Shown here: positions 6,847 to 29,727 of the stretch, piece after piece
How the letters are laid out: every line of letters starts with the position of its first letter
Numbering within the stretch: position 1 is the stretch's first letter
From: an uncultured Candidatus Saccharibacteria bacterium
GTDB taxonomy: Bacteria; Patescibacteriota; CALEFQ01
Length of the DNA: 64,000 bases
Assembly: GCA_965230955.1 (NCBI GenBank)
Contig: OZ246404.1
Coordinates: 856,790-920,789, forward strand
Direction: 5' to 3'
Made by a program: the position numbers and the translations under genes
The notes under the pieces: model-generated
What the model was told of the DNA's origin: nothing
The model's input: the letters and a program-made list of their open reading frames with translations, nothing else
Database searches by the model: none

Positions 6847-6850
6847 AAAT

Positions 6851-7432: not shown

Positions 7433-7436
7433 GTAA

Positions 7437-8036
7437 TTATTTCTTAAGAGTGTTTTGAATCTTTTGCCCGAGTTGCAGGAGCTCTTTTTCTTGAAGTATT
7501 TTGGAAAAATCCAGCAAAATCACCAGTCGGCTTTTCCCCTTGGCCCCCTGCTCGCGCTGACTTTTGGTTTTGAGATTGACACCGGCCTCGAGCACCACCA
7601 CTCCGGTCAAATAATCGGCGTGGATTTTACTGGAAACCAATTCAGGCGTCGGCTGAATCAAGCTGTGCGGCACCGGCAAAATTTCTTTGACGCTGTCCAC
7701 CATCAGGCCGTAAGTATTATTTTCTTTCTCCAAAACAATCATATGCCGGGGAGCGACGGGTTGCTCCCGGACCAAACCGAATCTTTTTTCCAGATCAATC
7801 ACCACTACGATTTTTCCACGCAAATTAAAAATCCCCTTGATAAAAATCGGAGCGCTGGGAATCGGCGTGATGGCCGGTATCAAGATAATACTTTGCAATT
7901 CAATCAGCGGCACGGCATATTCTTCTCCGTCAAGTTCAAAAACAAGCAGTTTGATAATTTCTTCCGCTTTTTTGTTTTTCTCACTCAGCTCATCCGCCAC
8001 TTGAGCGACAATTTTTTTTAGGTCTGTCGGGGGCAT
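7437..8036 (-). CDS. cheW: Chemotaxis coupling protein CheW
   Basis: CheW-like domain (VFELDGEEYAVPLIELQSIIL...FNLRGKIVVVIDL). Confidence 0.85.
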   Translation of the reverse strand: MPPTDLKKIVAQVADELSEKNKKAEEIIKLLVFELDGEEYAVPLIELQSIILIPAITPIPSAPIFIKGIFNLRGKIVVVIDLEKRFGLVREQPVAPRHMIVLEKENNTYGLMVDSVKEILPVPHSLIQPTPELVSSKIHADYLTGVVVLEAGVNLKTKSQREQGAKGKSRLVILLDFSKILQEKELLQLGQKIQNTLKK

Positions 8037-8040
8037 ATGT

Positions 8041-9852
8041 TTAGCCTCTTTTTACTTCAATTTTTTTCGTGACAGCCGGCGCCTGATTCGGAACAGTCTG
8101 AAGCGAAGAATGATTGACCAAGCCAGACAATTTCCGGAGTGATTCGGATAGCGCCAGTAATTGCTGAGCCGCGGCGGCCACTTGCTGATTGGCGGCGCTT
8201 TGCTGCTGAGTCGCTGCTGATAGCTGTTGGGCGCCGGAAGCGTTTTGCTCGGCCACCGAAGCGATGGCATCAAGCGTTTTGGCCGATTGCTGAATCGTCG
8301 CCGCTTGCTGTTGGATCGTGGTCGAAACTTCCCGAACCCGCTTAGTCACATCTTGAACGGAAGTAACCGCTCCGCCGATAGTCCGATTGACCTCGCCGAC
8401 AATATTTTTGATCTTGATTGCTGATTTTGCCGAATCATCAGCCAGTTTGCTGACCGAATCGGCCACCACGGCAAAACCTCGTCCGGCCTCGCCGGCGCGC
8501 GCCGCTTCAATCGCGGCGTTGAGAGCCAACAAATTTGTCTGATCGGAAATATTGGTGATCGTCTCGACAATCGCTTCGATACTCTCGGTACTCTGGCCAG
8601 CCAATTGCGCCAGCTGGGAAGTTTTGACGGCGCTGAGCGCGGCTTCCTGCGATGACGCCGACATCTGGCGCATCGACGCCGCCAGCTGGGTAATGCCTTT
8701 GGAAACTTCCTCGGCCTGCTTGGATTGTTGCATGGCTCCGGAAGCCACTTGCTGGGCGACGGAAGAATTCTGCTGAGAAGCGGAAGAAGTTTGCTGAGAT
8801 GAAGACGCCAGTTGTTGCGACGCCTGCCCCATCTGCTTAACGGCATCACGCAGCGGCCGGCGCACATATTCGGTAATAATCCGGGCGTACCACCAGCTGA
8901 AGAAAGCGAGGACCACCACAATGATGGCGCCAAAAAGGATTAACTGATCACGCAAAGTATATACCGGCGCCAAAATTTCCGATTGATCAACCTTGACGAT
9001 CGTGCACCAATTTTTCCCGAGCGCGGTATTGAACTCGTTTTGCCTAAAAGCGCCAATCACCGGAATGCCGCGATAATCAGTAACTGCTCCAAATGATTCT
9101 TCTCCCGCCGCACAGCGTCTGGGACCTTCGGCATCGATTTTTTTAGAGAGGATCTCCGCTTCCCCGGTATAACGCGAATCAGTCATCATGATCCGATCGG
9201 AATTAATGAGAAAAACATCGCCCGTTTTTCCCGCGGTGGCAGCCGTGTCTTTGACAATCTCATTTAGACCGACCAATTTTGCCCGCCCGACCAGAACCCG
9301 AGCCGTCGGACTTCCGGCGGCATCATGCACCGCCGTCGCCACCGCATAATTAAGCATGTCACCCACTTGGGATTTATACACATCAGTCACATACGGGCGC
9401 AACCGGCTGGTTGAATTTTTAAAGTAGTCTTTATCGCTACGATCCAAGCCGATATTTTTAGGATCGCTGGAAGCGATCGTGACACCGTTTGAATCCAGCA
9501 AGAAAAGTTCATAAAAATTATCACCCCGGTCGGCTTGCAGGTGAACCAGATGAGCCTGAGCTTCTTCGAAATCCGGCGTCCCCGGCTCCGACAAGAAAAC
9601 CTCATTGTCGGACAAGGCGGCAACTTCCAAGATATCGCCTTGGACTGATCCCACCAGCGCTTTCTCGGCAATTTCCGATAGCGCCGTCACGCGCTGAGTC
9701 GCACCATTTGTCAGAGCCGTCGAGGCTTCCTGGTAACTTAGCCAACCGAGAATAACCAGAGGCGTAATCGCCGCCACTAAAAAACCCAAAATCAGCCTGG
9801 CTGTCAGACCGAAACGGCTTTCTTTCTTTGCCTGGGAACGATCTTGATCCAT
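8041..9852 (-). CDS. Methyl-accepting chemotaxis protein with a periplasmic Cache-like sensor
   Basis: N-terminal TM segment, a ~270-aa extracytoplasmic domain and a second TM. Highly conserved MCP signalling core [31 protein letters not shown] with Q/A-rich methylation helices. Confidence 0.9.
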
Positions 9853-15122: not shown

Positions 15123-16343
15123 CTATTCGTACCGTAAAGCCTCAATCGGATTCAGCTTTGCCGCACGTCGCGCCGGGTAGTAACCAAAAACCAAACCGAC
15201 CAACGCCGAGACGCCGACAGCGAGAAGAATTGAACTGACCGTAATACTGGCGTTAATCGTGGAAAACTGGGAAATAAGTAAAGCCGCCACATAACCGAAA
15301 ATTATACCGAAAATTCCGCCAAAGAAAGTCAGCATAATCGATTCCATCAAAAACTGCGAGGTGATATCGCGCCGCTTGGCGCCGATCGCCTTGCGCAAAC
15401 CGATCTCCTTGGTGCGTTCGGTAACTGAAGTAAGCATCATATTCATAATCCCGATCCCGCCGACCAGCAAGGAAATTCCTCCAATCGCCCCCAGGAGAGC
15501 CGTCAGAGTACCGGTGATTGACGAAGCCATCTCAACCAAATCCGCCATGTTGCGCACCGAAAAATCGGCATTGGCCGAATCGGAAATTTTATGGCGCTGC
15601 AACAGCAGGGCGGTAATCTGCTCCTGCACCGACGTCATGCTGGACTGATCGACCGTTTTTACAATAATCGTATTGACGTATTCATCGCCGGAAAAATAAC
15701 GCTGGGCCGTACTGATCGGAATAAGCACACTGTCGTCCGAACTGCTAAACATCCCGCCGGTAGCTTCCAGCACGCCGACAATTTTAAAATTCATCTCATT
15801 GATCCGGATCGATTCGCCGACCGGATTGGCTCCAGCTCCAAATATATCCTCGGCCACCGTGGCTCCGAGCACAGCCACTTTGGCATTGCTCTTGGCCTGC
15901 TGGTCCGTAAGAAATTTCCCTTTGGTGGTCACCAGATCGCGCGCCGTGGCATAAGCGGCGTTGACTCCCATTACGCTGGCATTGACATTATTGTTTTTCG
16001 CCACTACCTGATAATTACCGGATACCGACGGCGCGACCGCCGCCAGCTTAGGCACTTGCTTTTCAATGGCCGTGGCATCTTCCATGGTCAAAGTCTTGGC
16101 TGAACCGCGGCTGGACCGCACACCCGAACCGATACTTTGTTGCGCCCCGGGCATGATGGTAATCAGATTCGCCCCGCCGGCTTCAATATTTTCGGTAATC
16201 GATTGCTGGGCGCCGGTACCGACCGACATCAATCCCACCACAGAAGCGATTCCGATCACAATTCCGAGCATTGTCAAAATCGAACGGCCCTTGTTCGCCG
16301 TCAGAGCGATATATGTTTCTTTTAGAAGGTCTGATGGTTTCAT
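15123..16343 (-). CDS. ABC transporter permease, MacB/FtsX family
   Basis: N-terminal TM, a large periplasmic domain and a C-terminal FtsX-like 3-TM bundle. Confidence 0.85.
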   Translation of the reverse strand: MKPSDLLKETYIALTANKGRSILTMLGIVIGIASVVGLMSVGTGAQQSITENIEAGGANLITIMPGAQQSIGSGVRSSRGSAKTLTMEDATAIEKQVPKLAAVAPSVSGNYQVVAKNNNVNASVMGVNAAYATARDLVTTKGKFLTDQQAKSNAKVAVLGATVAEDIFGAGANPVGESIRINEMNFKIVGVLEATGGMFSSSDDSVLIPISTAQRYFSGDEYVNTIIVKTVDQSSMTSVQEQITALLLQRHKISDSANADFSVRNMADLVEMASSITGTLTALLGAIGGISLLVGGIGIMNMMLTSVTERTKEIGLRKAIGAKRRDITSQFLMESIMLTFFGGIFGIIFGYVAALLISQFSTINASITVSSILLAVGVSALVGLVFGYYPARRAAKLNPIEALRYE

Positions 16344-16405
16344 TTTTGATACCAGTCAAAAATATGTTCGTCTAAACTTTTTACTTTTGACCTTTGACTT
16401 TTGAC

Positions 16406-17125
16406 TTATAAATGAAGTCCTTGTTTGATAGTTCGTTTGTGCAAATTAGGACGATCGGATGCGATCAAGCCATCTTTGATAGTAATTACCCGGTCGGTAA
16501 ATTCAGTCACTTCAACTTCATGAGTAATGACGATAATGGTACGTTTATCTTTCTTGTTTAGCTTCTCAAAAGTGCCCATCACCACTTCTCCGGATTTGCT
16601 ATCCAGGTTGCCGGTCGGCTCATCCGCAAAAATCAGGGCCGGATCGTTCACCAGGGCACGGGCAATCGCCACGCGCTGAATTTGGCCGCCGGATAATTGA
16701 TTCGATTTATGATCCCAAAGTTTTTTATCAGGCAGACCGGCATCGATCAAGGCTTTTTGCGCCCGCTCCAGTCTTTCTTTGTTTGGCAAACCTTGATAGA
16801 CAAACGGCAATATTACATTGCGCAACACCGAAGTCCGCGGCAAAAGATTGAACGACTGGAAAACAAAGCCGATACGATTCAGTCTGATATCAGCCAGTTG
16901 GTTTTCGCTGTATTCGGTCACGTTTTTACCGGCGAAAATATACTGCCCGCCCGTTGGAGTATCCAGCAAACCCAAAATATGCATCAAGGTAGATTTACCA
17001 GAACCGGACGCACCCATAATCGAGACAAACTCCCCCGCCTCAATTTTCAGGGTAACCCCGCCCAGCGCCTTGGTCTCGACTTCGCCACTGCGGTAAACTT
17101 TTGTTATATCGCGACACTCGATCAT
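16406..17125 (-). CDS. ABC transporter ATP-binding protein (MacB/LolD-type)
   Basis: Walker A GASGSGKST, signature LSGGQIQRVAIARAL and Walker B IFADEPTGNLD. Confidence 0.9.
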   Translation of the reverse strand: MIECRDITKVYRSGEVETKALGGVTLKIEAGEFVSIMGASGSGKSTLMHILGLLDTPTGGQYIFAGKNVTEYSENQLADIRLNRIGFVFQSFNLLPRTSVLRNVILPFVYQGLPNKERLERAQKALIDAGLPDKKLWDHKSNQLSGGQIQRVAIARALVNDPALIFADEPTGNLDSKSGEVVMGTFEKLNKKDKRTIIVITHEVEVTEFTDRVITIKDGLIASDRPNLHKRTIKQGLHL

Positions 17126-18648
17126 CAGCGCGGCCCTCCGCCACCGAACGAATCCGGTGGCATAAAACCGCCGCCATTACGCGAAGTAGAATTGTTCACA
17201 GAATTAGTATTCGAGCTTTTAGACGAAGTAGTAGAGACTTCCCCGATGACAACTTCATCCCCGGCTTTCAGTCCGGAAATAATTTCCGACTCGGTGTCAT
17301 TGGTCAAGCCCACTTCGACCGTCACTGGCCTCGGGACAACAGCGCCGCTATTCAAAACTTGCACGTAGCTTTGGCCGGAATCCCCGGTCTCGATGGCCGT
17401 GCTGGAAATCACCAGAACTTGGGCGGCTTCCCCCACGGTAATCTCAGCAGCCGCGGTCATGCCGTTCGCGATTCGATCATCTTGGCTGTCCAGCGTCACC
17501 GTCACGCCATAGCTGACCACGCCGGAACTGGTCGTCCCGTCCGCGTCGATTTTAGCCACCGTGCCGTCAAGCGTCAGATCCGCGATCGCGTCAAAAGTTA
17601 TTTTAGCTTTTTGCCCGATCTGGATACTGGGACGGTCAACTTCATTCACGGTGATCGCGGCTTGTTTTTGCCCGGTCACCAGCGTCGCCATGCCCTGACT
17701 GCCGGAACTGGAAGAAGAAGAACTGGCGGTGGCGGTCGTCGCTGACGACACGGCACTGACCGACTGCGTGCCGGTGGCCGAGGAAGAATTGCCGCCGCCG
17801 GAAACGCTGTCACCAACTTCCACATTGATAGCGGTAATCATGCCGCCAAACGGCGCTCGAACTTGGTAATCCTTTGCCTCAGTTTGAATTTCACTTAAAG
17901 AATTTCTCGCTTTGGCAATGGCTAATTCTTGGGAACGAATTTCTTCCGGCGTCGCTCCGGTTTTCAATTCGATCAAGGCCGCTTGTTTTTCTTTGATTGT
18001 CGCTTCGGCCAAATTGATCGCAGCCGGACCTGTTTTGTCTAGATCTTCCAAAGTTTGCTCCGCCGATGTTAGCTGAGTCGAGTATTTTTCATAAAGAGTA
18101 TCATAATTGGGATCGCTCCGGCTCAAATCATCCAAATGATCCTCGGCGGATTCCAAGTTGGTGTCGGCCGTCGCACGATCCTGTTTTTGCTTTAGTTTCA
18201 GGGCGACCAAATCATCTTCGGCTTTGGTCACCGCGTCTTCGGCTTGTAAAATTTTCGAAGTGTCCGGCGCCGCTAGCAAAGTTTCCAGTTGCAATTGCGC
18301 TTTTTCTAAATCGATCCGGGCATTCGAAACCGTGCGATTATAGTCTTCAGTATCGAGCTGGAAAAGCAAATCATTTTCCGCAACCGTTTCGTTTTCACTC
18401 ACGTAAATTTTCGACACTTCTCCCGAAGTGTCCGAGGCGACAGCAACTTGATTTATATCCTCAATCTGACCGCTGCCCGAAACAGTTTTGGTAATAGTCC
18501 CCTCTTTCACGCGCGCGGTTTGGTATTGGCTCTCCTCCGATTTTGGGGTAGTCAGAGTCACTACCAAAAAGTACCCGCCGATAATCGCCCCGGCGGCGAT
18601 CAGCGCCATCAATATTTTGTGCGTCTTTATAAATTCTAAAATCTTCAT
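17125..18648 (-). CDS. Efflux periplasmic adaptor (HlyD/MFP family) with Ser/Thr/Gly-rich C-terminal tail
   Basis: N-terminal TM, a long coiled coil and a beta-barrel region. The C-terminal ~60 aa are low complexity (SSKSSNTNSVNNSTSRNGGGFMPPDSFGGGGPR). Confidence 0.8.
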   Translation of the reverse strand: MKILEFIKTHKILMALIAAGAIIGGYFLVVTLTTPKSEESQYQTARVKEGTITKTVSGSGQIEDINQVAVASDTSGEVSKIYVSENETVAENDLLFQLDTEDYNRTVSNARIDLEKAQLQLETLLAAPDTSKILQAEDAVTKAEDDLVALKLKQKQDRATADTNLESAEDHLDDLSRSDPNYDTLYEKYSTQLTSAEQTLEDLDKTGPAAINLAEATIKEKQAALIELKTGATPEEIRSQELAIAKARNSLSEIQTEAKDYQVRAPFGGMITAINVEVGDSVSGGGNSSSATGTQSVSAVSSATTATASSSSSSSGSQGMATLVTGQKQAAITVNEVDRPSIQIGQKAKITFDAIADLTLDGTVAKIDADGTTSSGVVSYGVTVTLDSQDDRIANGMTAAAEITVGEAAQVLVISSTAIETGDSGQSYVQVLNSGAVVPRPVTVEVGLTNDTESEIISGLKAGDEVVIGEVSTTSSKSSNTNSVNNSTSRNGGGFMPPDSFGGGGPR

Positions 18649-18649
18649 A

Positions 18650-18988
18650 TTATTGATTAAATGACGGCCGACCGGCGGGACGGCTAGCCTCTATGGCCGC
18701 CCGTTCGGTGTCATCAATTTTACCATCGGCGCAATATTCTTCCATCTGGCTCATTCGACCATCATCTTGCCCGGTCTCGCCGGAACCACGCCCGGATGGC
18801 ATATCACCCTCGGCTATTCGCGCGCAAATGTCGCCGGCATCGCCACCGGGGAAAGCTTCCGCCCGCAGATCACTCGGCCGGGAAACGAGAAAATGAGAGA
18901 TGACAAATCCTATCGCGCCGGCAATTATAGCCACAGCGATAATAGTTACAATTCCTTTTTTGGTACCATTCTTGTTAGAATTTTCCAT
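18650..18988 (-). CDS. Small membrane-anchored hypothetical protein
   Basis: A single TM helix followed by an acidic, Cys-containing region. It lies inside the efflux operon between the RND and adaptor genes. Confidence 0.4.
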   Translation of the reverse strand: MENSNKNGTKKGIVTIIAVAIIAGAIGFVISHFLVSRPSDLRAEAFPGGDAGDICARIAEGDMPSGRGSGETGQDDGRMSQMEEYCADGKIDDTERAAIEASRPAGRPSFNQ

Positions 18989-19123
18989 GATTTTCGCTTA
19001 AATATGATAAAAAACCCTCTCACACTACTACGCCAGATACAGCCAATTTATTTCCGAAATAGCAGGAAATCAAGCTTACTTAAACCACCAACGAATTCGT
19101 TGGTGGTTTAGAGTTTGATACGT

Positions 19124-22100
19124 TTATTTATCTTCCGCCTGCGCCTGAACTTGCCCGGTCAAATCATCCAGAGTGGTAATCTTCAGCCAAGGCTTATCAA
19201 CGCCCCGCTTTTTGCGGCGGGTAAAGAGATAGATCAAAACGGGGACAATCACCAATGATCCAACGGTCGAACAAACCAAACCGGCAATCAGCGAAGTCCC
19301 AAGCCCGGTCCAGAAAGGATCATTGATCGTCAGCGGGATAATACCGCCGATGGTCGTAATAGTCGTGGAAAGAATCGGCTTAATTCTGCCTCGGCCCGTC
19401 TCCGCCAGTGCCTGCGCCAGAGAAAACTGCGGATTGGTGCGTTTCACACGATTATAATAATCGATTAAAACAATCGCGTTATTAACGACAATTCCCACCA
19501 AGGCGATGATGCCCAAACCGGAAACCATGTCCAAAGTCGAACCGACCCAGAAAAGCGCCGGGAAGACACCGATCAAACCCATGGGAATAGTCAGCATGAT
19601 GATAAACGGTTCGCCGTAGCTATTGAATTGATAAACCAGAACCAGATATACCAGCAACATAGCGATGATCAATACAATTTGCAGACGACTAGAAGTATCC
19701 ATCATTGAAGCATACTCCCCGCCATAGACCACGTCGTCCGGCTCCAGTCCGTATTCCTGAAGTTTATCTTCAGTCAAATAATCTTTGATTGCTTGCTCTA
19801 AAGTCGCTTTGTCACCGTCTTTGGTCAGTTTTACTTTGAATGATCCGACGCGCTCGCGATTCAGCCGGCTGATGGTATCCAAACGATCGGTCTCGCTGAC
19901 ACGCGCCACCTCTGAGAGCTTGAAAGGAAGCGCTGTGGTCGTAGCGCCGATTACCGGCACGTCTTTCAAATCAGTCGTCGATTCACGAGCCGATTCGCGG
20001 TAGACGACCGACACTTTGTCCGAAACGCCGTCAGCCCGGACGACAACTTTGCCGGCATCTGATTCGCTGAAAACAGAATTGATCGCCATTGAAGCAAAGA
20101 AAGCACTGCTCTGTTTCTGAGACAATTTCACCGGATCCAGTTCGACACTGACCGAAGGAGTCATTATATCTTTCGGCCCATTCAGCACGCGATCGACCTG
20201 TTCTTGATCGTTGGCGAATTTTTCCAAATCATCGACCAATCGAGTAACTCCGTCGCTATTAGATGAAGCTAATTCAACGATCACGTCAAATTCCTGAGCC
20301 GGCGGACCATAGCTCTGCGAATTAACTGAAATAATTTTCCCGTCGGTGCGAAGCTCCTCAACTTTTTGATCCAAATCATCGCCGATTTGCTGAGAAGTCA
20401 GATCAGTATCGCGCTCGGTCGGTTCGGTAATGAAAATCATGAAACTGCCCTGCCAGAAAAAGTAACTTTCAAAATGGGGAATCGTCAGAATCTTCTCGCC
20501 CAGTTCGCGATAAGTTTCGTTTTGCACTCCCCGCGGCGTGCCGGACGGAAATTTTATCGCCAATGATATTTGTTCTCCGTCCATCGTGGGAAACTGCGAA
20601 AACGGCAACCGCGGCAGGAAATAACTGAAACTACCGATCAGTAAAACCACGGGGATGACAACAGAAAGAATCAAGCCTTTCTTGGTCGTCAGTACCCGCC
20701 GAATAAACTTGTAATAGCTGTTCACTAAAAGGTCAACCGAATGCTGGGCATAATAGATCAGCACGGGGAAAACGGAAATTTTTTCCCAACGTTTGAAAGT
20801 ATGCGCCCCATTGCCGTTACTCGGCTTGCCCAGCAGCCAGATACCAAACAGCGGCGTAATGGTAATCGCCAAAAAATATGATGCCACCAGCATGAGGACC
20901 AACGTGATTGGAATGTATTTCAAGAACTCGCCCATAATCCCGCCCATGAAAGCGTATGGAATCAAAGCGATGACAGTCGTGACCGTAGCTGCAAGTATTG
21001 CCGCGCCGTAATCGTGAACGGATTTAAGCGCCGCGGCGAATTTGTTCATCCCGCGCTTGAGATTATCCAGCATGCCGGAGGCAATCACGATCGCGTTATC
21101 GACCACCATACCCAGCGAGAGAATCATGGCAAACAAAGTCAAAATGTTTAGAGTATAACCAAGCAACGGCATGACAAACCAAGCAATCAAGAAAGAAATA
21201 GGCAAAACCAACGCCACCAGCAAGCCGGCGCGCAGACTGACAAAAAACAGCAACACGACCAAGATAATGATCAAACCTTGCCAGCCGTTTTCCGCCAGAT
21301 CGCCGATCAAACTGCGGACAAAAGGCGAGGTATCATAAACCAGATTCAATTCGACATCGTCCGGGACAATATTTTTTTCATGAATTTGCCCCACCGCTTC
21401 TTTGATGGCGTCGGAAACTCGCAGTACATCGCCATCACTCTTTTTAGTCGCCAATAAATAAATCGCTTCGGTGGATTTCGCTGTACCGTCGCCGTTGATA
21501 TAACCCGCTAAAGTAAAAGCCTCGTCAACCGGCACACGTTCGATTTCCGCAATATCACTGAGTTTGATCGGTCCAATCGAAATTTTCTTGAAGTCATCTA
21601 AATTATTGACTGGTGATTCAATGACGATCGGTTTCTCCCGCCCGTCACCGGTTTTGACAAAACCGCCGGGCAGAGCCGAAGTCGCACCTTTGATGGATTC
21701 CACCACCGTTTCCTTGGTCAAGCGATAACGCGCTAATTTGGCTTCGTCCAGGGTAACTTGAATTTCCATCTCCGCGCCGGGCATAACTTCCACTGTTTTG
21801 ATCTCGGGTGAAACGGATTCCAGATAATTCACCACTGGCGGCGACATTTCCAGTAATTCGGTACGAGAACGCTCGTCGCTGGAAAGAACATAGGCCACGG
21901 TCGGGCCGGTAATATCAACCTGATCGACCTGAATTTCCACTTTTCCCGGCAAATTGGCTTCGCGAGTTTTGTTTTCAATATCGGTGACCCGTTGTTCCAA
22001 GTTTTTAAAATCATCGAATTCGATGAAAATCCCTCCAAAATTATTGGAAGACGTCGAACGGAGATTTTTGATCCCCTCGACTTCATAGATTTTGTTTTCC

Positions 22101-22336
22101 AAAGGGATAACCACTTCCTGTTCCACGTCGCCGGAACTCGCCCCGGGATAAATGGCGTTGACCAGTACCATATTGCCAGGAATATTCGGAAAATCCTGCT
22201 TGGGAATGTCACGCACACCGAAATAACCGGCGATGATCAGAGCCACCAGCAATAAAATTGTCACCCGATACCGATCAATAAAAAATCGCGCCCACCGGGC
22301 GAAACCATTCGGCTTGAAATTCAGTTGTTTGTCCAT
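19124..22336 (-). CDS. RND superfamily efflux transporter permease
   Basis: 1070 aa with twofold-repeated 6-TM bundles and large periplasmic loops, typical of AcrB-like transporters. Confidence 0.85.
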   Translation of the reverse strand: MDKQLNFKPNGFARWARFFIDRYRVTILLLVALIIAGYFGVRDIPKQDFPNIPGNMVLVNAIYPGASSGDVEQEVVIPLENKIYEVEGIKNLRSTSSNNFGGIFIEFDDFKNLEQRVTDIENKTREANLPGKVEIQVDQVDITGPTVAYVLSSDERSRTELLEMSPPVVNYLESVSPEIKTVEVMPGAEMEIQVTLDEAKLARYRLTKETVVESIKGATSALPGGFVKTGDGREKPIVIESPVNNLDDFKKISIGPIKLSDIAEIERVPVDEAFTLAGYINGDGTAKSTEAIYLLATKKSDGDVLRVSDAIKEAVGQIHEKNIVPDDVELNLVYDTSPFVRSLIGDLAENGWQGLIIILVVLLFFVSLRAGLLVALVLPISFLIAWFVMPLLGYTLNILTLFAMILSLGMVVDNAIVIASGMLDNLKRGMNKFAAALKSVHDYGAAILAATVTTVIALIPYAFMGGIMGEFLKYIPITLVLMLVASYFLAITITPLFGIWLLGKPSNGNGAHTFKRWEKISVFPVLIYYAQHSVDLLVNSYYKFIRRVLTTKKGLILSVVIPVVLLIGSFSYFLPRLPFSQFPTMDGEQISLAIKFPSGTPRGVQNETYRELGEKILTIPHFESYFFWQGSFMIFITEPTERDTDLTSQQIGDDLDQKVEELRTDGKIISVNSQSYGPPAQEFDVIVELASSNSDGVTRLVDDLEKFANDQEQVDRVLNGPKDIMTPSVSVELDPVKLSQKQSSAFFASMAINSVFSESDAGKVVVRADGVSDKVSVVYRESARESTTDLKDVPVIGATTTALPFKLSEVARVSETDRLDTISRLNRERVGSFKVKLTKDGDKATLEQAIKDYLTEDKLQEYGLEPDDVVYGGEYASMMDTSSRLQIVLIIAMLLVYLVLVYQFNSYGEPFIIMLTIPMGLIGVFPALFWVGSTLDMVSGLGIIALVGIVVNNAIVLIDYYNRVKRTNPQFSLAQALAETGRGRIKPILSTTITTIGGIIPLTINDPFWTGLGTSLIAGLVCSTVGSLVIVPVLIYLFTRRKKRGVDKPWLKITTLDDLTGQVQAQAEDK

Positions 22337-22449: not shown

Positions 22450-23154
22450 TTAATTTTGACACAAATAATCGCACGGATCAACCCAACCGCTTAAGTCAGC
22501 AGAATTTGAAACATACCCTTTAACATTGACTGCCGATCCGCGGTGAATTCCCAAGTGAAGGTGTTTGCGCTCCCGGTCTGTGTCGGCACTGCTATCGTCC
22601 CCCAGCACAGCGAAAGCTTCATCGGCGGCTAAGATGTCCCCAACATTTTGCGAAATACTCGCTAATTTAATGTGACCGTAAAGCACCGTGATGGGCACGC
22701 CATCAAGCGTGCAACTCTGGATAACAACTCCCCCATATCCGCCAACAGTTTCTTTCCTCATCAAAGAACCGGAGCAAATCGCTCTAACGGCTACAACTTC
22801 ATCCGTCTCTTCCGGAAAAATTTCGAAATCCACGCCGGTATGATAGCCGCTGAATCGCTCCGGCCGGATTGGAGAATTCTGGGGCGTAATATATTGGCCG
22901 AATTTTTTCTTCGTCACCCGTTCATCAGCACGGTCAAGGGGAGCAACAAAGTCATTCGTAATGTTAGGGGTAACTTCTGTAATTGTTATAGTTGGCGTCG
23001 TGATTGATACGGACAGAGGTGTGGCCGTGGGAGAAATTAGGGTCGACACAAGCTGATTATCTGATAACGGACTCGGCCTGATAAAAAACCAAACTAGAAA
23101 TATCCCCAGGGCCACTAGCCCGGTGATTAAGACCAGATAGTATTTTTTATCCAT
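22450..23154 (-). CDS. M23 family metallopeptidase (LytM-like)
   Basis: HTGVDF, GGYGGVV and HLHLGI motifs (HxxxD ... HxH). N-terminal TM anchor. Confidence 0.8.
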   Translation of the reverse strand: MDKKYYLVLITGLVALGIFLVWFFIRPSPLSDNQLVSTLISPTATPLSVSITTPTITITEVTPNITNDFVAPLDRADERVTKKKFGQYITPQNSPIRPERFSGYHTGVDFEIFPEETDEVVAVRAICSGSLMRKETVGGYGGVVIQSCTLDGVPITVLYGHIKLASISQNVGDILAADEAFAVLGDDSSADTDRERKHLHLGIHRGSAVNVKGYVSNSADLSGWVDPCDYLCQN

Positions 23155-23205
23155 ATTTATATTCTATCGTTTATCCTCTCATTGTGCAAAACTGTAAACG
23201 TCAAA

Positions 23206-23236
23206 ACAGGGGCGGGCTAAGCCTGCCCCTGTTATA
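23206..23236 (-). terminator. Terminator after the 766-aa repeat-protein gene
   Basis: ACAGGGGCGGGCTAAGCCTGCCCCTGT hairpin plus a T-run on the reverse strand. Confidence 0.7.
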
Positions 23237-23253
23237 TCGATATCATAATTATT

Positions 23254-25554
23254 CTAGAAATTCGCCACGGCTACATCCGCTCCCGCTTTCTGGGTTGCGG
23301 CGTAAGCGTAAAAGCCCGGAGTGAAAACAGCCTGTCCGTTGTATTTGAACGTGCGCACTTGAGCCGCATTTGCCGTTTTCGGCACCGTCACAATTTCCGC
23401 CTTGCCGTCGCTATTGAGATCGCCGGCGCTGATCAGGAACCCGGTTTTGATGCTACGCGCGTAAGCGTAGAAACCTTGGTTCAGTTTGGCTTTGCCGGTA
23501 GAGTCAAAGATTCGAACCTGGGCGGGAAAACCCTCGCCCGGGACAGTGACAATTTCATCTTTCCCGTCACCATTCAAGTCCGCGACCGCCACGTCGCCGC
23601 CGGTCGGCAATGTCCCGTAGGGATAGAAACCGGTCGTCCCTTTTGATTTACCGGTGTAATCGAAAATCCGAACTTGCGCTTGGGTACCGCGTTCGGGCAC
23701 AGTCACGATTTCCGCTTTGCCGTCTTTGTTCACATCACCGGCGGAAACACGCAGTCCGACTCTTAGACCCTGGGAATAGGCAAAGAATCCCTTGGACAAA
23801 ACAGACTGACCATTGCCGTTGAAAATTTTAACTTGCGGCCCGCAACCGGTTCCGGGGGTGGTAATGATTTCATCTATTCCATTTCCGTCCAGATCGGCCG
23901 CGGCGACATCCGTGCCGCAACGCAGGTTCCGGTCGTAGGCGTAGAAACCATTTTTGTTAAATTTGGGGGTTCCTTGTTTGTCAAAAACTCGGACGAGAGG
24001 CGCGCCGGCTCCACGCGGCGCGGCGATAATCTCGTCAATACCGTCACCGTCCAAATCACCGGTCGCCACATTGATTCCGCCCCGGAAAGTGGCGGCAAAT
24101 GTCATCAGATTTTTCGGTTTGCTCGCCTCATTGCCATAAGCGCTGTAAGAGCGCAACCACGGAGCGGCTCCGGCCCCGGCGCCGGTCACAATATGTCCTT
24201 TATTGATCACTTTCATCGTGAACTCTTCGGTCGCCGTCTGAGTCGGCGTACTGTAATCGGTCACTTGAACGGTAAACGTATGGTTTCCGCCTTCTTTCGG
24301 CGTACCGGAAATCGTCCCGGTATCGACATCAATATTTAGTCCGTCCGGCAAAGCACCGTCGCTGATTGACCACTGATGAGCCGGTGTACCGTTCGCAACA
24401 CTTATCTTTTGTTCATAACTTTTTCCTTCTGACGCGGTGCTCAATGAAGTCGTAGTAATATCAAAGGGGCCGATTTTTTCGGAACGCCAAATTTCGACTC
24501 CGGTGGTACTGTTGCTGGTCGCGACATACATCCGGTCGCCCCACTGCGTCATGCTATAGAAAGCAAAATTATTAGCATCTCCTTTCCCGTTTTCGATTTC
24601 TTTAGCCCAATCCACTCCGTTATCTGTCCGCCACAAGTTAGCGCCCGCTACCCAGTTTCTGATTCCGGTGTAAATCGTGCCGTTCACTACCATCGGATGA
24701 ATCGAGGGCCAATCGCCGTTGAAAGCTGTCGTAACTTTGCTCCAAGTCGTTCCGTCGGGGGAAGACCAAACCTGGGAGGAACTCGAGGTACCATTTAGGG
24801 TGAAAGCGTAAAGTTTATTATCAAATTTAACCATTCCCGCTACCGCAGAATTACTGGAATCCCCAAAACCGGCGCTACTGGCCGCGGTCCAAGTCGTACC
24901 ATCGGCCGTACGCCAAATTCGGCCTCCACCGACGGCAATAGTTCCGCAATATAACTGGTCGTTAAAAACATATAATGAATTCGCACCATAAGCATTACTG
25001 CCGAAACCATCGGTGTTAACCTGGGTCCAGCTTGCTCCATCAGCGGTGCGCCAAACTTCTACTCCGGTAGTCTGATTTCCAACCGCCGCATAGAGATGAT
25101 CGCCAAAAACTTGCAGGGAAACCAGCTCATAATTATTGTTGGCATCACCAAAACCATCGACATTGGCCTGGGCCCAATCGGTCCCGTTGCGGCTCCGCCA
25201 AACTCTGGTTGGCTCCCCACTGAGTGCCGCAGTAGAAATGGTAAAAAGATCCCCCCGGAAAACGGCAAAATCCTCGACATATTGATTGGCCGAGTTTCCA
25301 AAACCATCCGCGCTAACTTTGGTCCAGTCGGTTCCGCCAGAACTGCGCCAAACACTGCCGCCATTGATTGTGTTCCCGATTGCCAAGTACATGTAACCGC
25401 CCCACTCCTGAGGCGCAAAAACCAGCTGGTTATTGGCACTGCCAAAACCATCGGTGCTGACCTGCTCCCAACTGAGAGCCTGGGCCTGGCCGGCAACAGC
25501 ACAAAACAGCACGGCCACGGCCGCGACACTTAGCCAAATAAAGACTTTTTTCAT
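23254..25554 (-). CDS. Secreted multi-repeat protein: BNR/Asp-box propeller, Ig-like (He_PIG-type) domain, FG-GAP repeats
   Basis: Signal peptide. Seven or more WRxxxGxxW Asp-box-like repeats. A central Ig-like segment (ISDGALPDGLNIDVDTGTISGTP). Five C-terminal DxDGDGxDE FG-GAP-like repeats. Confidence 0.7.
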   Translation of the reverse strand: MKKVFIWLSVAAVAVLFCAVAGQAQALSWEQVSTDGFGSANNQLVFAPQEWGGYMYLAIGNTINGGSVWRSSGGTDWTKVSADGFGNSANQYVEDFAVFRGDLFTISTAALSGEPTRVWRSRNGTDWAQANVDGFGDANNNYELVSLQVFGDHLYAAVGNQTTGVEVWRTADGASWTQVNTDGFGSNAYGANSLYVFNDQLYCGTIAVGGGRIWRTADGTTWTAASSAGFGDSSNSAVAGMVKFDNKLYAFTLNGTSSSSQVWSSPDGTTWSKVTTAFNGDWPSIHPMVVNGTIYTGIRNWVAGANLWRTDNGVDWAKEIENGKGDANNFAFYSMTQWGDRMYVATSNSTTGVEIWRSEKIGPFDITTTSLSTASEGKSYEQKISVANGTPAHQWSISDGALPDGLNIDVDTGTISGTPKEGGNHTFTVQVTDYSTPTQTATEEFTMKVINKGHIVTGAGAGAAPWLRSYSAYGNEASKPKNLMTFAATFRGGINVATGDLDGDGIDEIIAAPRGAGAPLVRVFDKQGTPKFNKNGFYAYDRNLRCGTDVAAADLDGNGIDEIITTPGTGCGPQVKIFNGNGQSVLSKGFFAYSQGLRVGLRVSAGDVNKDGKAEIVTVPERGTQAQVRIFDYTGKSKGTTGFYPYGTLPTGGDVAVADLNGDGKDEIVTVPGEGFPAQVRIFDSTGKAKLNQGFYAYARSIKTGFLISAGDLNSDGKAEIVTVPKTANAAQVRTFKYNGQAVFTPGFYAYAATQKAGADVAVANF

Positions 25555-25680
25555 TTTTGTCTCCGACTGGCCAATATAAATGAGGCCAGTAATTAGTTTT
25601 TGTTGATTTTTGCTTATTATCTATATTTTATCATGAAAAAGGAGTTCGGGCAATATATGCCTAAAAAATGTGTGACCTAA

Positions 25681-25709
25681 AAAGGGGTGGGCTTAAGCCC
25701 ACCCCTTTT
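25681..25709 (-). terminator. Terminator after the 684-aa repeat-protein gene
   Basis: AAAGGGGTGGGCTTAAGCCCACCCCTTTT hairpin. Confidence 0.7.
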
Positions 25710-25732
25710 TCGTATGGAAACGATCTAATCTC

Positions 25733-27787
25733 TTAGAAATTCCCCACCGCCACATCGGCTCCGGCTTTCTGCGTCGCGGAATAAGCATAGAAACCGGGGG
25801 TGAAAATCACACTACCGTTTGATTTAAAGGTCCGCACCTGGGCCGGACTGCCGGTTTTGGGTACCGTCACAATTTCCGCCTTGCCGTCACGATTAAGATC
25901 CCCGGCATTGATCAAGAAACCGTTTTTGACACTGCGGGCATAGGCATAGAAGCCGGGATTAATTACCGCTTTCCCGGTCGAGTCAAAAATCCGCACTTGA
26001 GCCGGGAAGCCCTCGCCCGGTACCGTGATAATTTCAGCTTTTCCATTGCCATCCAAATCGGCCACCGCCACATCACCGCCCGTGCGCTGACTGCCATACG
26101 GATAGAAACCGGCAGTACCTTTCACCCGGCCGGAGTAATCAAAGACTCTGACTTGCCCCGGTACGCCTCGTTCCGGAACGGTCACAATTTCCGCTTTGCC
26201 GTCTTTGTTCACATCTCCCGCCGCAATTCTGGCGCCTACTCGCAGACCGGAACCGTAGGCGAAGAAACCCTTCGTCAAAACCGTCTGCCCATTGGCGTCA
26301 AATATTTTTACCTGCGGGCCGCAACCGGCGCCGGGAATAGTGATAATTTCATCCAAACCATTGCCGTCAACATCGGCCGCGGCGACATCCGTGCCGCAAC
26401 GCAGGTTCTTGTCATAGGCGTAAAATCCCGTGCGACTGAATTTAATATTGCCGTCTTTGTCAAAAACCCGAACTTGCGCCGCCCCGTTGCCGCGGGGGGC
26501 AACGATAATTTCGTCAGTTCCATCCCCGTCCAAATCCCCCGTGGCGACATTGACCCCGCCCCGGAAAGTACCGGCAAAGGCCATCAAATTGCGAGGAGAA
26601 TTTTGCTCGCGTCCGTAAGCATTAAATTTCCGCACCCACGGCGTCGCTCCGGCGCCGGACGCCGTCACCAAATATCCTTGCGGCCAGACATTGATCCGCT
26701 CGGAACGATAAAGTTTCGCACCACCAAAAGAACTGAGAGCCGCATAGATCCGATCTCCCCACAAAGTCATCCCGTAAACCGAGTAACTGGTGCTACTTCC
26801 TTGGCCATCGGACATTTCAGATTTCCAATCCACTCCGTTGTTTGTACTCCAGACTCCTCCTCCGTTCTTCGTATTGGAATAACCGACATACAAACTGCCG
26901 TCGGCCACAACCGGCCGCATGAAAATCCAATATGTTTCGACATTGCCAAATCCATCAGTATTGACTTGGGTCCAAGTGTCACTATCGCCATCAGCCGAGC
27001 GCCAAGCTTCCGTCCCGGTGACATCGTTATAGGTAAAAGAATATAGCTCGTCATTGAAACGCACAAAGGAACCGATTCCCTCGTTATTCGCATCGCCAAA
27101 TCCGTCACTGATCACCTCTTTCCAAGCTGTTCCGTTGGACGTGCGCCAAATTTTTCCCGCGCCGTTATTCAGCACGCCGCAATAAAGTTGGCCGTCAAAT
27201 TCGTAGAGATCCGTGATTTCATAATTGGAAACCGCACCGCCGTCAAAATCGTCATCATTCGCTTGCGACCAATCGGTCCCATTGGCGGTACGCCAAATTT
27301 CCGCGCCGGTAGTATGATTACCTGTTCCCGCATAAAGCTGGCCATCGAAAACCTCCAGAGCAACCAGTTCCGATAAATTCTTAGTATCACCAAACCCGTC
27401 ACCACCGACCTGGCTCCAGTCCGAGCCGTTTCTTGAACGCCAAACTTCCGTTCCGGTGTCGAAGTTGGCGGCAATCGCATAAAGGTCTCCGTTGAAAACC
27501 GCGAAATCTTCAATAAACATATTGTTGTCGTTACCAAAACCGCCGCTACTTACTCGCTCCCAATCAGCTCCGCCGCTACTGCGCCAAACTTCCGCCCCGG
27601 CAGAACCAGTGACACCAGCATACATGTAGCCGCCCCAAATCGAAGGAGCAAAAACAATACTATTGGCACTGCCCCAGTACTGCTGGGTGTCAATTTTTTC
27701 CCAGCTTACCGCTTGAGCAGATCCCGCCATTAACAAAAACAATACGGCGGCCACCGCGATCCCCAGATTGATAAATAATTTTTTCAT
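25733..27787 (-). CDS. Paralogous secreted BNR-propeller / FG-GAP repeat protein (lacks the Ig-like insert)
   Basis: Same architecture and a near-identical C-terminal half to the adjacent 766-aa protein. Confidence 0.7.
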   Translation of the reverse strand: MKKLFINLGIAVAAVLFLLMAGSAQAVSWEKIDTQQYWGSANSIVFAPSIWGGYMYAGVTGSAGAEVWRSSGGADWERVSSGGFGNDNNMFIEDFAVFNGDLYAIAANFDTGTEVWRSRNGSDWSQVGGDGFGDTKNLSELVALEVFDGQLYAGTGNHTTGAEIWRTANGTDWSQANDDDFDGGAVSNYEITDLYEFDGQLYCGVLNNGAGKIWRTSNGTAWKEVISDGFGDANNEGIGSFVRFNDELYSFTYNDVTGTEAWRSADGDSDTWTQVNTDGFGNVETYWIFMRPVVADGSLYVGYSNTKNGGGVWSTNNGVDWKSEMSDGQGSSTSYSVYGMTLWGDRIYAALSSFGGAKLYRSERINVWPQGYLVTASGAGATPWVRKFNAYGREQNSPRNLMAFAGTFRGGVNVATGDLDGDGTDEIIVAPRGNGAAQVRVFDKDGNIKFSRTGFYAYDKNLRCGTDVAAADVDGNGLDEIITIPGAGCGPQVKIFDANGQTVLTKGFFAYGSGLRVGARIAAGDVNKDGKAEIVTVPERGVPGQVRVFDYSGRVKGTAGFYPYGSQRTGGDVAVADLDGNGKAEIITVPGEGFPAQVRIFDSTGKAVINPGFYAYARSVKNGFLINAGDLNRDGKAEIVTVPKTGSPAQVRTFKSNGSVIFTPGFYAYSATQKAGADVAVGNF

Positions 27788-27899
27788 TTTTGTCTCCCGC
27801 TGGCCAAAAGAAGCTTGGCCAGTAATTAGTAACGTTGATTTTTATATTTCATTTTGCTATTTCAGACTTGCTTCTATTTTCGATATTTTAATTTCTGAT

Positions 27900-28301
27900 T
27901 TATTTCTCCGTCGTCTGTCCGTCAAATTCCGGACCGTCAGCCGTCGCTTCAGCTTTGGTCGCGCGAATCACGCCGTCTTTGTGATGCGCCGGAGAGTAAA
28001 TCGTGTAAAGCTTTAGTTCGTCGGTATCGGAAGTATTGATAATGTTATGCTGAGCGCCGGCCGGCACGACAATGGCACTGCCATCGGCCAGCGAATATTC
28101 GTTGCCGTCAATTATGCATTTGCCGGTTCCTTTTTCAAAACGAAAAAACTGGTCATTGTCCTGATGGACTTCCATGCCGATATCTTCTTTCGGCTTAAGA
28201 CTCATCAGCACCAGTTGGCTGTGTTTACCGGTATAGAGTACGTGGCGAAAATCGGAGTTTTTTAATGTTTCTTGTTCAATGTTGGCGTTAAAACCTTTCA
28301 T
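27900..28301 (-). CDS. Cupin-domain protein
   Basis: Cupin motifs (GMEVHQDNDQFFRFEKGTG...AIVVPAGAQHNIIN). The start was moved to the internal Met (MKGFNANI). Confidence 0.7.
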   Translation of the reverse strand: MKGFNANIEQETLKNSDFRHVLYTGKHSQLVLMSLKPKEDIGMEVHQDNDQFFRFEKGTGKCIIDGNEYSLADGSAIVVPAGAQHNIINTSDTDELKLYTIYSPAHHKDGVIRATKAEATADGPEFDGQTTEK

Positions 28302-28464
28302 GTTAATAAATTTAAGGATTAATAAGTGTTTTGTTTTAGGAAGCTTGATACCATTATAGCAGAAATAATAACCAATATCCAATAACAAATATCAAATAAA
28401 ATTCAATACCCAAGATAGAAATGTAATCATTTTGACATTGGCATTGAATTTTATTTGATATTGG

Positions 28465-29727
28465 TTATTTGATATTTTCCCCCGCCAGATACCCCGTACT
28501 CCAACAAACTTGCAAATTGAAACCGCCGGAAGGCCCGTCTATGCCGAGAATTTCCCCGGCAAAATATAGATTATCGATCAATTTTGATCGCATAGTTTTA
28601 TCGTCTATCTCAGTCAACGTGATCCCGCCACTCGTCACCATCGCCTCATCAAAACCTTTTAGTCCCGCGACTGACAGCTCCAGTTTTTTCAGCATTCGGG
28701 CGAAGGATTGTCTTTCCTCTCGAGTAATCGCCCCGGCGGGTTTCTCTGAATCAAAATGATTGAGACCGGCGACAATCGAAATCAGCTTGCGCGGAACCAG
28801 GCCGGTCAAACAATTTTGAAACGCCTTTTTGGGCAGTGATTCGATTTGCTCCAGTAAAGTTTGATCCAGCTCGGCCATAGTCAGATCCGGCAAACAATCC
28901 AGGGACAGACGGACTTCTCCTTGGGCCAGCAAAGGACCGACCCGACCGCTGATATTCAAAATCGCCGGGCCGCTCAAACCAAAATGGGCAAACAAACAAT
29001 CGCCTCTCTCCACCGCCCGCTCTTTTTCGTTTTGCCGCAAACTGACATCAATTCCAGCCAAACTAATCCCCGCCAAATCTTTGATCCATGGCTCTTTGAT
29101 CACGATCGGCGACAGCGCCGGATATAATTTGGCCGCATGATGGCCAAGATCAGCGGCCCATTTAAAACCGGCGCCGGTCGATCCGGTAGAGGGATAAGCC
29201 ACTCCCCCTGTGCAAAAAACAAAATTTCGGGCGAAAATAGCGCCTTGCGCCGTTTCGATTTTGGTAATCTTGCGATTTTGCTTTTCGATCCCTGTCACTT
29301 CCGAATTGTCGATGATGACGACCCGGTTCCGGACGAGGTATTTTTCCAGCGCGACCAAAACATCTTCCGCTTTGTCACTGCGCGGGAAAATTCGGTCGCC
29401 TTCCGATTTCGTGGCTACGCCAAGATTTTCAAAAAAATCGATGGTCGCCCGAGGACCGAAAGTAGCGAAAGCATGCCAAAGAAATTTACCGCGATCGCCG
29501 TATTTTTTCACCAGTGCGCGCAGATCGAATTCCGCGTTGGCCAAATTGCACCGCCCGTGGCCGGTCAGGAGAAGTTTTTTACCCGGACGCTCGTTTTTCT
29601 CTAACAAAACCACCTTGGCGCCAAGCGAGGCTGCCCGCCCGGCGGCCATCAATCCGGCCGGACCCGCGCCGATAACCGCGATATCAAATTTTTTTATCGT
29701 TTCCAATGTCTTCATTAACTGCGCCAC
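28465..29727 (-). CDS. FAD-dependent flavoprotein, HI0933/BaiN-like family
   Basis: N-terminal dinucleotide-binding motif DIAVIGAGPAGLMAAGRAA. GHGRCNL motif typical of HI0933-like proteins. Confidence 0.8.
   Translation of the reverse strand: MAQLMKTLETIKKFDIAVIGAGPAGLMAAGRAASLGAKVVLLEKNERPGKKLLLTGHGRCNLANAEFDLRALVKKYGDRGKFLWHAFATFGPRATIDFFENLGVATKSEGDRIFPRSDKAEDVLVALEKYLVRNRVVIIDNSEVTGIEKQNRKITKIETAQGAIFARNFVFCTGGVAYPSTGSTGAGFKWAADLGHHAAKLYPALSPIVIKEPWIKDLAGISLAGIDVSLRQNEKERAVERGDCLFAHFGLSGPAILNISGRVGPLLAQGEVRLSLDCLPDLTMAELDQTLLEQIESLPKKAFQNCLTGLVPRKLISIVAGLNHFDSEKPAGAITREERQSFARMLKKLELSVAGLKGFDEAMVTSGGITLTEIDDKTMRSKLIDNLYFAGEILGIDGPSGGFNLQVCWSTGYLAGENIK

Follow-up and report, generated by a model that had tools for sequence, protein, structure and literature searches.

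The closest described relatives of the element considered here are short stem-loops in the leaders of bacterial messages. The aprE leader, reportedly described by Hambraeus in 2002, is said to combine a stem-loop with ribosome binding as an mRNA stabiliser; Emory reportedly described the 5' stem-loop of ompA as an mRNA stabiliser in 1992, and Hue is said to have described a polypurine mRNA stabiliser in 1995. In this study, we analysed a stretch of 64,000 nucleotides from an uncultured Candidatus Saccharibacteria bacterium of the Patescibacteria (assembly GCA_965230955.1, contig OZ246404.1, positions 856,790 to 920,789), hereafter called the window. It contains two tandem genes for secreted proteins, gene A and gene B, and both of them have a small conserved hairpin followed by a putative ribosome-binding box directly in front of the start codon.

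This arrangement resembles the aprE and ompA/papA leaders and the polypurine or STAB-Shine-Dalgarno (STAB-SD) elements, in which a short stable leader stem-loop lies upstream of a purine-rich box without occluding it. As with the aprE/ompA-type stabilisers, which accompany genes whose products are abundant secreted or surface proteins, the element belongs to genes for secreted proteins and has neither a U-tract nor a ligand-sized structure. There are also differences. The known stabilisers are experimentally defined and stand at the 5' end or a few nucleotides from it, whereas the transcript of gene B is predicted to start ~33 nt upstream of the hairpin; furthermore, the element described here also occurs between cistrons, and in a host that seemingly initiates translation mostly without Shine-Dalgarno (SD) motifs. 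A second group of relatives comprises the MS2/R17 coat-protein operator and the L20 and S15 leaders, which likewise have a small family-specific hairpin with conserved flanks, set at a constant spacing from the start codon. In these operators nucleotides of the loop or bulge are conserved, whereas here the loop is free, and no Rfam family matches at its gathering score.

Conservation of the leader hairpin

Genes A and B are both encoded on the minus strand, and their leaders have the same order of parts: a UAAUUA box, the arm ACUGGCC, a loop, the arm GGCCAG(U), a distance of 2 nt after the core of the stem, the box GGAGACAAAA, and the start codon in the context AUG AAA AAA. With one more U in front, the first box reads UUAAUUA in both, and the hairpin comprises 6-8 bp. 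The leader of gene A (27788..27847, minus strand) opens with an A-rich stretch, and its hairpin (27800-27822) is followed by 2 nt and GGAGACAAAA; the fold has an energy of -14 kcal/mol. In the leader of gene B (25555..25614, minus strand), the hairpin is ACUGGCC-N11-GGCCAGU (25566-25590), separated from GGAGACAAAA by a single C, and folds at -11.9 kcal/mol (z -2.6). A repeat finder reports a 95-nt direct repeat that spans leader and signal peptide (25503-25597 and 27736-27830, 75% identity), and the pattern CTGGCC-N7-15-GGCCAG has exactly two matches in the 64 kb, at 25567-25589 and 27800-27822, where 0.02 would be expected. An earlier sequence-only reading of this DNA had proposed homologous leaders with a conserved stem. 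Aligned and folded, the leaders bear this out, and their likeness extends past the SD region.

To place the two copies in a wider frame, twelve leaders from six contig lineages (the window and five related ones) were aligned, and all twelve contain the element. Little or no variation is seen in the UAAUUA box (where T-A-x-T-x-A is constant), in the core stem and in GGAGACAAA-N-ATG, while the loop, 6-12 nt long, is unalignable and unconserved. The six core pairs (CUGGCC/GGCCAG) are paired in 72 of 72 cells; of 95 cells in all, 93.7% are paired, a share that drops to 10-46% once the 3' partner is slid by 1-3 columns. One copy, L001_C, carries a double compensatory change from U-A to G-C; the ancestral pair is retained in its ortholog L006_C (91% identical). 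Changes on one side of the stem number seven, and each yields a U.G wobble, a pair that forms in the sense-strand RNA only. The covariation score of 0.258 compares with 0.172 in shuffles and was reached by 12 of 500 of them; because the sample consists of only 12 related sequences, covariation gives moderate support for a structured cis-regulatory RNA.

The geometry of the element is equally regular. The stem ends 2 nt before GGAG, GGAG stands 6 nt before AUG, and the stem is thus held 12 nt upstream of the start codon. About half of the copies have a helix lengthened to 9-11 bp by inner pairs of unrelated sequence, and energies across the twelve leaders range from -6.5 to -18.7 kcal/mol. Both the minimum-free-energy and the centroid structures leave GGAGACAAAAAUG unpaired; the stem-loop precedes the ribosome-binding region and does not mask it. 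Since pairing has been kept while neutral sites between the paralogs are saturated (see below), the conservation points to purifying selection on the RNA helix and its flanks rather than to residual similarity. Judged by these sequence comparisons, the leader hairpin is a selected structure of the sense-strand RNA.

Other roles for parts of the leader were considered and rejected. The hairpin is not followed by a U-run, which rules out an attenuator or terminator. A function on the antisense strand is ruled out because the U.G wobbles would turn into C.A mismatches there. The UAAUUA box is not a -10 element either, as it matches TATAAT poorly and a start 7 nt downstream of it would fall inside the stem.

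Distribution of the element

A covariance model built from the 12-leader alignment (R1) recognises the leaders of gene B (77.8 bits, E 5e-13) and gene A (66.9 bits, E 8e-11) and nothing else in the window, where the next best score is 15 bits; its matches in the related loci are all leaders of propeller-family genes. When the window was compared with Rfam 15, only tRNAs passed the gathering score. At permissive E-values, the best Rfam matches over the two leaders are at chance level (27.4 bits against a cut-off of 88, and 22.4 against 60); the chance matches, which include 'mycoplasma_FSE' with 27 bits against a cut-off of 88, are driven by terminators and A-rich sequence. Databases were also scanned with a pattern made of the 3' arm, GGAGACAAA and ATG. 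The scan of JGI metagenome contigs gave 39 loci, all of them chance matches, and that of GTDB representative genomes, a collection that apparently does not include the genome of the window, gave 109, among which only L094 is a true relative. The scans therefore indicate that only a narrow clade of Patescibacteria carries the element. The leader hairpin is an undescribed, narrowly distributed cis-element, ordinary in kind.

A set of unlinked paralogs, here called lineage E (P0010-P0012; 769 aa, with a He_PIG domain), has hairpins of its own, at L005:4227-4279, L159:2500-2552 and L160:2644-2696. These genes have a clear (T/C)GTGCTATAAT promoter with the hairpin 15-22 nt after it, and the transcript is predicted to start ~9-15 nt upstream of the hairpin. 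The stems differ from ortholog to ortholog (UCUGCC/GGCGGA, UUUCUCGUGU/ACGCGAGAGA and CUGCCGA/UCGGCAG, with z between -4.6 and -5.1), and downstream of the hairpin come a 16-nt A-rich tract and then AUG, without GGAG. Because lineage E also has hairpins, a stem-loop that stands in the leader, 12-16 nt ahead of the start codon, appears to be a recurrent feature of the family in this clade. The deeper lineage-E ortholog L007 showed no leader hairpin. Distant FG-GAP paralogs of Patescibacteria (L158), considered as further carriers, were rejected: their leaders are ordinary, one with a GGAGG SD, and hold no comparable hairpin.

Transcription and translation of the two genes

Gene B has a promoter of the sigma-70 type (25625..25653, minus strand), which consists of TTGCCC, 17 nt and TG-n-TAAAAT, and a comparison of upstream sequences showed that this promoter module recurs in front of L006_C, L156_A and L156_x. 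In the 112-nt spacer before gene A, the promoter scan recognised none. The leader was previously placed between a promoter region and the start in both genes, and this description holds for gene B and, as far as promoters could be recognised, not for gene A. Directly upstream of gene A lies a Cupin_2 gene (27900..28301, minus strand; ~133 aa from an internal ATG; Pfam Cupin_2, 55.5 bits). No terminator follows it, and in the related contig L002 the spacer between the cupin gene and gene A is only 47 nt. As gene A has no promoter of its own in the spacer and there is no terminator behind the cupin gene, the two are probably co-transcribed from a promoter with a TGCTATAAT box near 28353-28361 (minus strand; promoter scan match 28381..28353).

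Downstream of both genes, the stop codon is followed by a GC-rich stem and a U-run, the form of an intrinsic terminator. That of gene A (25679..25710, minus strand) is a perfect 16+16 palindrome, AAAAAGGGGTGGGCTT/AAGCCCACCCCTTTTT, with an energy of -27.5 kcal/mol (z -5.55) and then UUUUU; that of gene B (23205..23233, minus strand) has -23.1 kcal/mol (z -4.22) and then UUUU. The strong terminators noted before are thus confirmed. The suggestion that the two genes are independently regulated is not supported, as gene A is without its own promoter and every family member has one invariant leader, which argues for shared post-transcriptional handling.

A separate observation concerns the region upstream of the cupin gene. 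Between its promoter and the stop codon of an HI0933-like flavoprotein gene there is an AT-rich 37-nt inverted repeat (28374-28476; 92% complementary, 29-nt spacer, -39.8 kcal/mol as RNA), which is absent from the orthologous spacers of L001-L004. Possible identities are a terminator, an operator or a small insertion.

The ribosome-binding box of the two leaders stands out from its surroundings. One of GGAG, GAGG and AGGA occurs at -18..-5 in 3 of the 39 long open reading frames of the window, and two of these three are genes A and B. When every candidate start within the first 30 codons is admitted, SD cores are found at 4.5% of the starts, compared with 6.6% before internal in-frame start-like codons. 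Typical genes of the window have short A-rich leaders behind TG-n-TATAAT or TGTGCTATAAT boxes. From these counts, the host appears to initiate mostly without SD, and the near-absence of SD motifs in the window is consistent with a report of a Parcubacteria subgroup without the anti-SD motif (PMC9297842).

Age of the duplication and structure of the array

At fourfold degenerate sites, genes A and B are 25-45% identical (36% in the C-terminal half), which means that these sites are saturated. No identical run in their codon alignment is longer than 37 nt. The relatives recovered by protein search fall into four orthogroups (A, B, C and D). Gene A shares 69-78% identity with its own orthologs in the N-domain and 79-83% in the C-domain; for gene B the values are 67-80% and 85-88%. 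Each window gene is therefore nearer to its orthologs in other genomes than to its neighbour paralog. Saturated synonymous sites, together with orthogroups that recur across genomes, indicate that the duplication is ancient, and the identities suggest that the C-terminal half is the slower-evolving part. Gene conversion or concerted evolution of the C-terminal halves was considered as an explanation of their similarity and is ruled out, since orthologs are closer than paralogs and synonymous sites are saturated.

The two proteins differ by an Ig-like domain. Gene B encodes a He_PIG domain (24208..24453, minus strand; aa 368-449; PF05345, 46.5 bits against a cut-off of 24), for which gene A gives no Pfam match and has 2 residues only in the alignment columns concerned. 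All four A-type orthologs lack the identical 88-aa segment and have 2 residues in its place, and an Ig-like domain (He_PIG or Big_5) is present at that place in B, C, D, lineage E and distant Patescibacteria homologs. As the outgroup paralogs retain the domain while the A-type orthologs share one gap, the Ig domain is ancestral and was lost once in the A-type. The sequence-only reading was right to assign the domain to one gene; it called this gene the first, which is true in plus-strand coordinates only, as transcription meets the Ig-less gene A first, and its view of the domain as an insert has to be reversed. A mobile insert or cassette shuffling is ruled out by the single ancestral loss. 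The N- and C-terminal halves co-segregate by orthogroup, and where cassette-like domain shuffling had been anticipated, the comparison of domain composition among relatives reveals stable orthogroups, one old loss and no gene conversion.

In the window the array runs cupin-A-B-M23. Gene A (25733..27787, minus strand) encodes 684 aa, and gene B (23254..25554, minus strand) 766 aa; directly downstream of gene B, a gene for a membrane-anchored M23 peptidase (22450..23154, minus strand; Pfam Peptidase_M23, 30.8 bits) closes the array. Elsewhere the order is cupin-A-M23 (L002, L003 and L094), cupin-B-A-C... (L001), cupin-B'-A... (L004), X-D-C... (L006) and X-A-B... (L156 and L157), and the number of members in relatives ranges from 1 to at least 3. 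Synteny of the cupin gene followed by the array is matched in L001-L004, and an ortholog of the M23 peptidase occupies the equivalent position in L002 and L003. It may be added that the flanking cupin and M23 genes are constant wherever related contigs reach them, despite the changed order and number of the paralogs. On the evidence of these contigs, the locus is the two-member case of a tandem array of variable copy number that extends from cupin to M23 in a narrow Patescibacteria clade, and the unit of duplication was clearly, by the same comparison, a whole expression module of promoter, leader, gene and terminator.

Function of the leader module

With about even confidence, we propose that the stem-loop and the ribosome-binding box form a bipartite mRNA stabiliser and translation-initiation module of the aprE/ompA type. 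Decay that runs 5' to 3' or depends on the 5' end would be blocked by the hairpin, which would also screen the start region off from the sequence upstream of it, while the purine box and the A-rich start region would hold a ribosome loaded. Such a module would serve both a primary 5' untranslated region, as in gene B, and an intercistronic position behind the cupin gene, as in gene A. In the latter, decay or processing from upstream would halt at the stem and leave a translatable, protected mRNA, which would explain why the hairpin is kept not only behind a promoter (gene B) but also in intercistronic spacers of 47-112 nt (gene A and L002). Abundant secreted proteins would in this way be made from messages that live long and are translated at a high rate. 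Lineage E, which keeps the structure without a shared stem sequence, also speaks for this proposal. Precedents for a stem-loop combined with ribosome binding appear among the references of PMC3997798.

Several points weigh against a stabiliser. Given the start predicted ~33 nt upstream in gene B, only processing of the RNA would place the stem-loop at its 5' end, and the hairpin energies, -6.5 to -18.7 kcal/mol, are modest. Within the A-D lineage, the stem sequence itself is very conserved, beyond its pairing, and GGAGACAAA is invariant over 9 nt, beyond the needs of a structural stabiliser or an SD; as far as conservation can tell, the invariance of stem and GGAGACAAA hints at a sequence-specific partner. 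The GGAG of the leaders may not act as an SD, because SD-like motifs are nearly absent at the other starts and loss of the anti-SD has been reported (PMC9297842). Finally, we infer the adhesin role and the abundance of the proteins from their folds alone.

Such a partner is the core of the explanation that competes best, which we regard as possible and hold tentatively: the hairpin and the invariant GGAGACAAA would be a translational operator, through which a trans-acting protein or small RNA switches the array jointly, or else a privileged ribosome-recruitment signal. In its favour, the stem arms, the UAAUUA box and the 9 nt of GGAGACAAA are invariant though synonymous sites are saturated, the spacing to AUG is fixed, GGAG is exceptional in a region essentially free of SD motifs, and the element is limited to a single gene family. 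Against an operator speaks a loop that is free in sequence and length, as it is usually the loop that sets the specificity of a hairpin-binding protein. Lineage E shares neither the stem sequence nor the GGAG box, so that structure alone seems to be the common denominator, and no candidate regulator gene is linked to the array, whose neighbours encode the cupin, the M23 peptidase and the HI0933-like flavoprotein. In a more specific form, the hairpin and GGAGACAAA would be a dedicated, family-specific translational control element of an SD-poor lineage (a recruitment signal or the operator of an unknown regulator) that co-ordinates an array of host-contact proteins in an episymbiont; we consider this form rather unlikely.

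It is improbable that the inverted repeat acts as DNA, either as a roadblock operator for a dimeric transcription factor or as a recombination site at which gene units are reordered or excised. The element is indeed palindromic (ACTGGCC...GGCCAGT), and gene order differs between genomes: the window has cupin-A-B, L001 has cupin-B-A-C, L004 has cupin-B'-A, and L002 has only cupin-A. But a half-site spacing that varies from 6 to 12 nt is unfit for a rigid dimer, and the single-sided changes, all of them U.G wobbles of the sense strand, break the DNA palindrome and keep the RNA pairing. The position of the element is tied to the start codon and not to the promoter, and it is kept without a promoter in the 47-nt spacer of L002. 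The co-segregation of N- and C-terminal halves leaves no cassette swaps, and no recombinase lies beside the locus, where the neighbouring genes were scanned (the whole window was not scanned exhaustively).

The sequence-only reading had raised the possibility of phase- or condition-specific adhesins, and expression switched by slippage or inversion, in phase or antigenic variation, would be a further alternative. The model for it is provided by the vlp/vsp/vsa loci of Mycoplasma, which use poly-A promoter tracts or site-specific inversion at long, nearly identical 5' regions. Like them, this locus has tandem exported paralogs with a conserved 5' untranslated region and signal peptide, and its copy number varies among relatives. 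Also in favour of such variation, N-propellers that have diverged (48% identity) are joined to conserved C-terminal halves (77%). In contrast to them, only ~45 nt are conserved, the genes are all co-oriented, each with complete expression signals, no repeats or invertase sites were found, and the paralogs form ancient, stable orthogroups. No tandem or simple-sequence repeats occur within 22450-28360, and the only arrays, at 28367-28477, lie ahead of the cupin gene. Behind the ATG there is a short A6 run, which simply encodes Lys-Lys. No inverted repeats of an invertible element or promoter flank the genes, and the sole candidate, a 14-nt AT-rich pair, is probably a chance match. We therefore consider phase variation highly improbable. 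A binding or adhesin role itself remains plausible from the folds, and it is the phase-variable switching that finds no support.

Least credible of all, and on these comparisons already contradicted, is a neutral, functionless leftover of a recent tandem duplication or gene conversion: promoter, leader, gene and terminator were clearly duplicated as one unit, but the fourfold sites are saturated, the longest shared run is 37 nt, closer orthologs exist elsewhere than the neighbouring paralog, the loop has wholly diverged while stem and flanks are identical, and a compensatory change and wobbles preserve the pairing.

Architecture of the encoded proteins

The two genes encode tandem paralogous secreted proteins, as had been claimed. 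They align end to end (472-595 bits in BLASTP), both begin with a Sec signal peptide that ends in AQA, and their identity is 61.5% in the signal peptide (26 aa), 48% in the N-terminal propeller and 77% in the C-terminal half (72% at the nucleotide level). With 684 and 766 aa they are not giant, and with the identities just given, and 36% at fourfold sites, the C-terminal halves are far from near-identical. Gene A encodes a signal peptide, a 7-bladed propeller and, directly after it and without an Ig domain, an FG-GAP propeller; in gene B the order is signal peptide, 7-bladed propeller, He_PIG Ig domain and FG-GAP propeller. Neither protein has a C-terminal anchor, and both finish in the last propeller strand (...VAVxNF).

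The AlphaFold2 (AF2) domain model shows the N-terminal 335 aa as a 7-bladed beta-propeller (pLDDT 94.1, pTM 0.93; pLDDT 89 for the full-length model of gene B). Every blade has a DGFGDxxN segment and a W-R-[ST]-x-[DNG]-G-x-x-W hairpin, and the shorter motif W-[RS]-[ST]-x-x-G-x-x-W occurs in 5-6 copies. The proteins share with the Asp-box propellers (sialidases, sortilin Vps10 and Ycf48) such a once-per-blade motif. The motif is, however, one residue shorter than S-x-D-x-G-x-T-W, and the canonical Asp-box, S-x-D-x-G-x-[TS]-W, has 0 matches in A and B. Pfam BNR, BNR_2 and Sortilin give no match in either protein at E <= 0.01; the Pfam matches of the N-propeller are DUF6242 (29.4 bits, cut-off 29) and sub-threshold propeller models, in gene B only. 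The Foldseek neighbours of the domain are sortilin, Ycf48, LGI1-EPTP and BT3686. Sortilin Vps10 has the best E-value (6e-11), yet a TM score of only 0.43; Ycf48 reaches 0.64-0.70, and LGI1-EPTP 0.71-0.74, with unrelated 7-bladed propellers equal or better. Of the earlier label, BNR or Asp-box propeller, the 7-bladed propeller is borne out by the model; 'Asp-box-like' is a fair description, and 'BNR propeller' is not established.

The C-terminal half (314 aa) was identified as FG-GAP before, and this holds in both proteins, which score above the Pfam cut-offs for FG-GAP (PF01839; 70.9 and 68.9 bits, cut-off 22.1) and FG-GAP_3 (PF13517; 59.8 and 59.2 bits, cut-off 26.9). In this the proteins resemble bacterial integrin-alpha-like FG-GAP/VCBS propellers, as they do in their Ca loops, D-x-[DN]-x-[DN]-G-x-x-E, of which each has five, ~53 aa apart, and in the match of the C-terminal family profile to integrin alpha-V propellers in the PDB (E 1.6e-7). 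Integrins have seven blades, whereas the secondary structure of the AF2 model suggests five full Ca-loop repeats here and a blade closed by N- and C-terminal strands. A and B also differ from integrin-like proteins in being fused to an N-terminal 7-bladed propeller and in having neither a membrane anchor nor a beta-subunit partner. The nearest named homologs all come from 'Patescibacteria / Parcubacteria group bacterium' entries and are labelled by NCBI as FG-GAP-like or VCBS repeat-containing protein; in the literature we found no paper on FG-GAP in Patescibacteria. Because 7-bladed propellers, Ig domains and integrin-alpha-like FG-GAP propellers are folds that bind protein or glycan, a binding or adhesin role is plausible, and the models make it most likely that A and B are extracellular binding proteins.

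Other features of the window

Directly downstream of the M23 peptidase gene, 15123-22336 (minus strand) encodes an AcrB/RND-type transporter (1070 aa, 486 bits), an HlyD-like membrane-fusion protein and a MacB/FtsX permease, an amount of efflux or export machinery that is notable for a reduced genome. A chemosensory cluster at 3684-9852 (minus strand) comprises CheA (3684-5402), CheB (5409-6470) and a dCache-MCP (8041-9852), in a Patescibacteria genome of ~1.1 Mb. Between 44396 and 49399, GC content falls to 0.34-0.39, compared with ~0.48-0.51, and this stretch, which has the look of a small defence island, holds a Shedu SduA_C-like gene, a TIR-TPR gene encoded on the other strand, and a Fic/DOC gene next to a tRNA (tRNA-Asn, 50397-50472). 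Two further minus-strand regions, 50969-54122 and 54771-55374, hold the genes rpoD and dnaG, which overlap by ~80 nt as called, and, following them, a cluster of tRNA-Pro(GGG), tRNA-Pro(CGG) and tRNA-Ser(CGA).

Significance

Patescibacteria, also known as the candidate phyla radiation (CPR), are ultra-small, mostly uncultured episymbionts. To our knowledge, almost nothing is known about their gene-regulatory RNA elements and their host-contact proteins. The locus described here offers a cis-acting RNA hairpin that is supported by selection, lies outside Rfam and is tied to a single family of secreted proteins. As a small element of a well-known kind in a narrow clade, it is of incremental value unless the operator or SD-exception reading is true. 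It also gives a hint that the genes of the A/B family may be translated or stabilised unlike the SD-less bulk of the genome. The double-propeller proteins themselves, encoded in a strain-variable array of one to at least three paralogs beside a peptidoglycan-type M23 peptidase, are candidates for interaction with the host surface.

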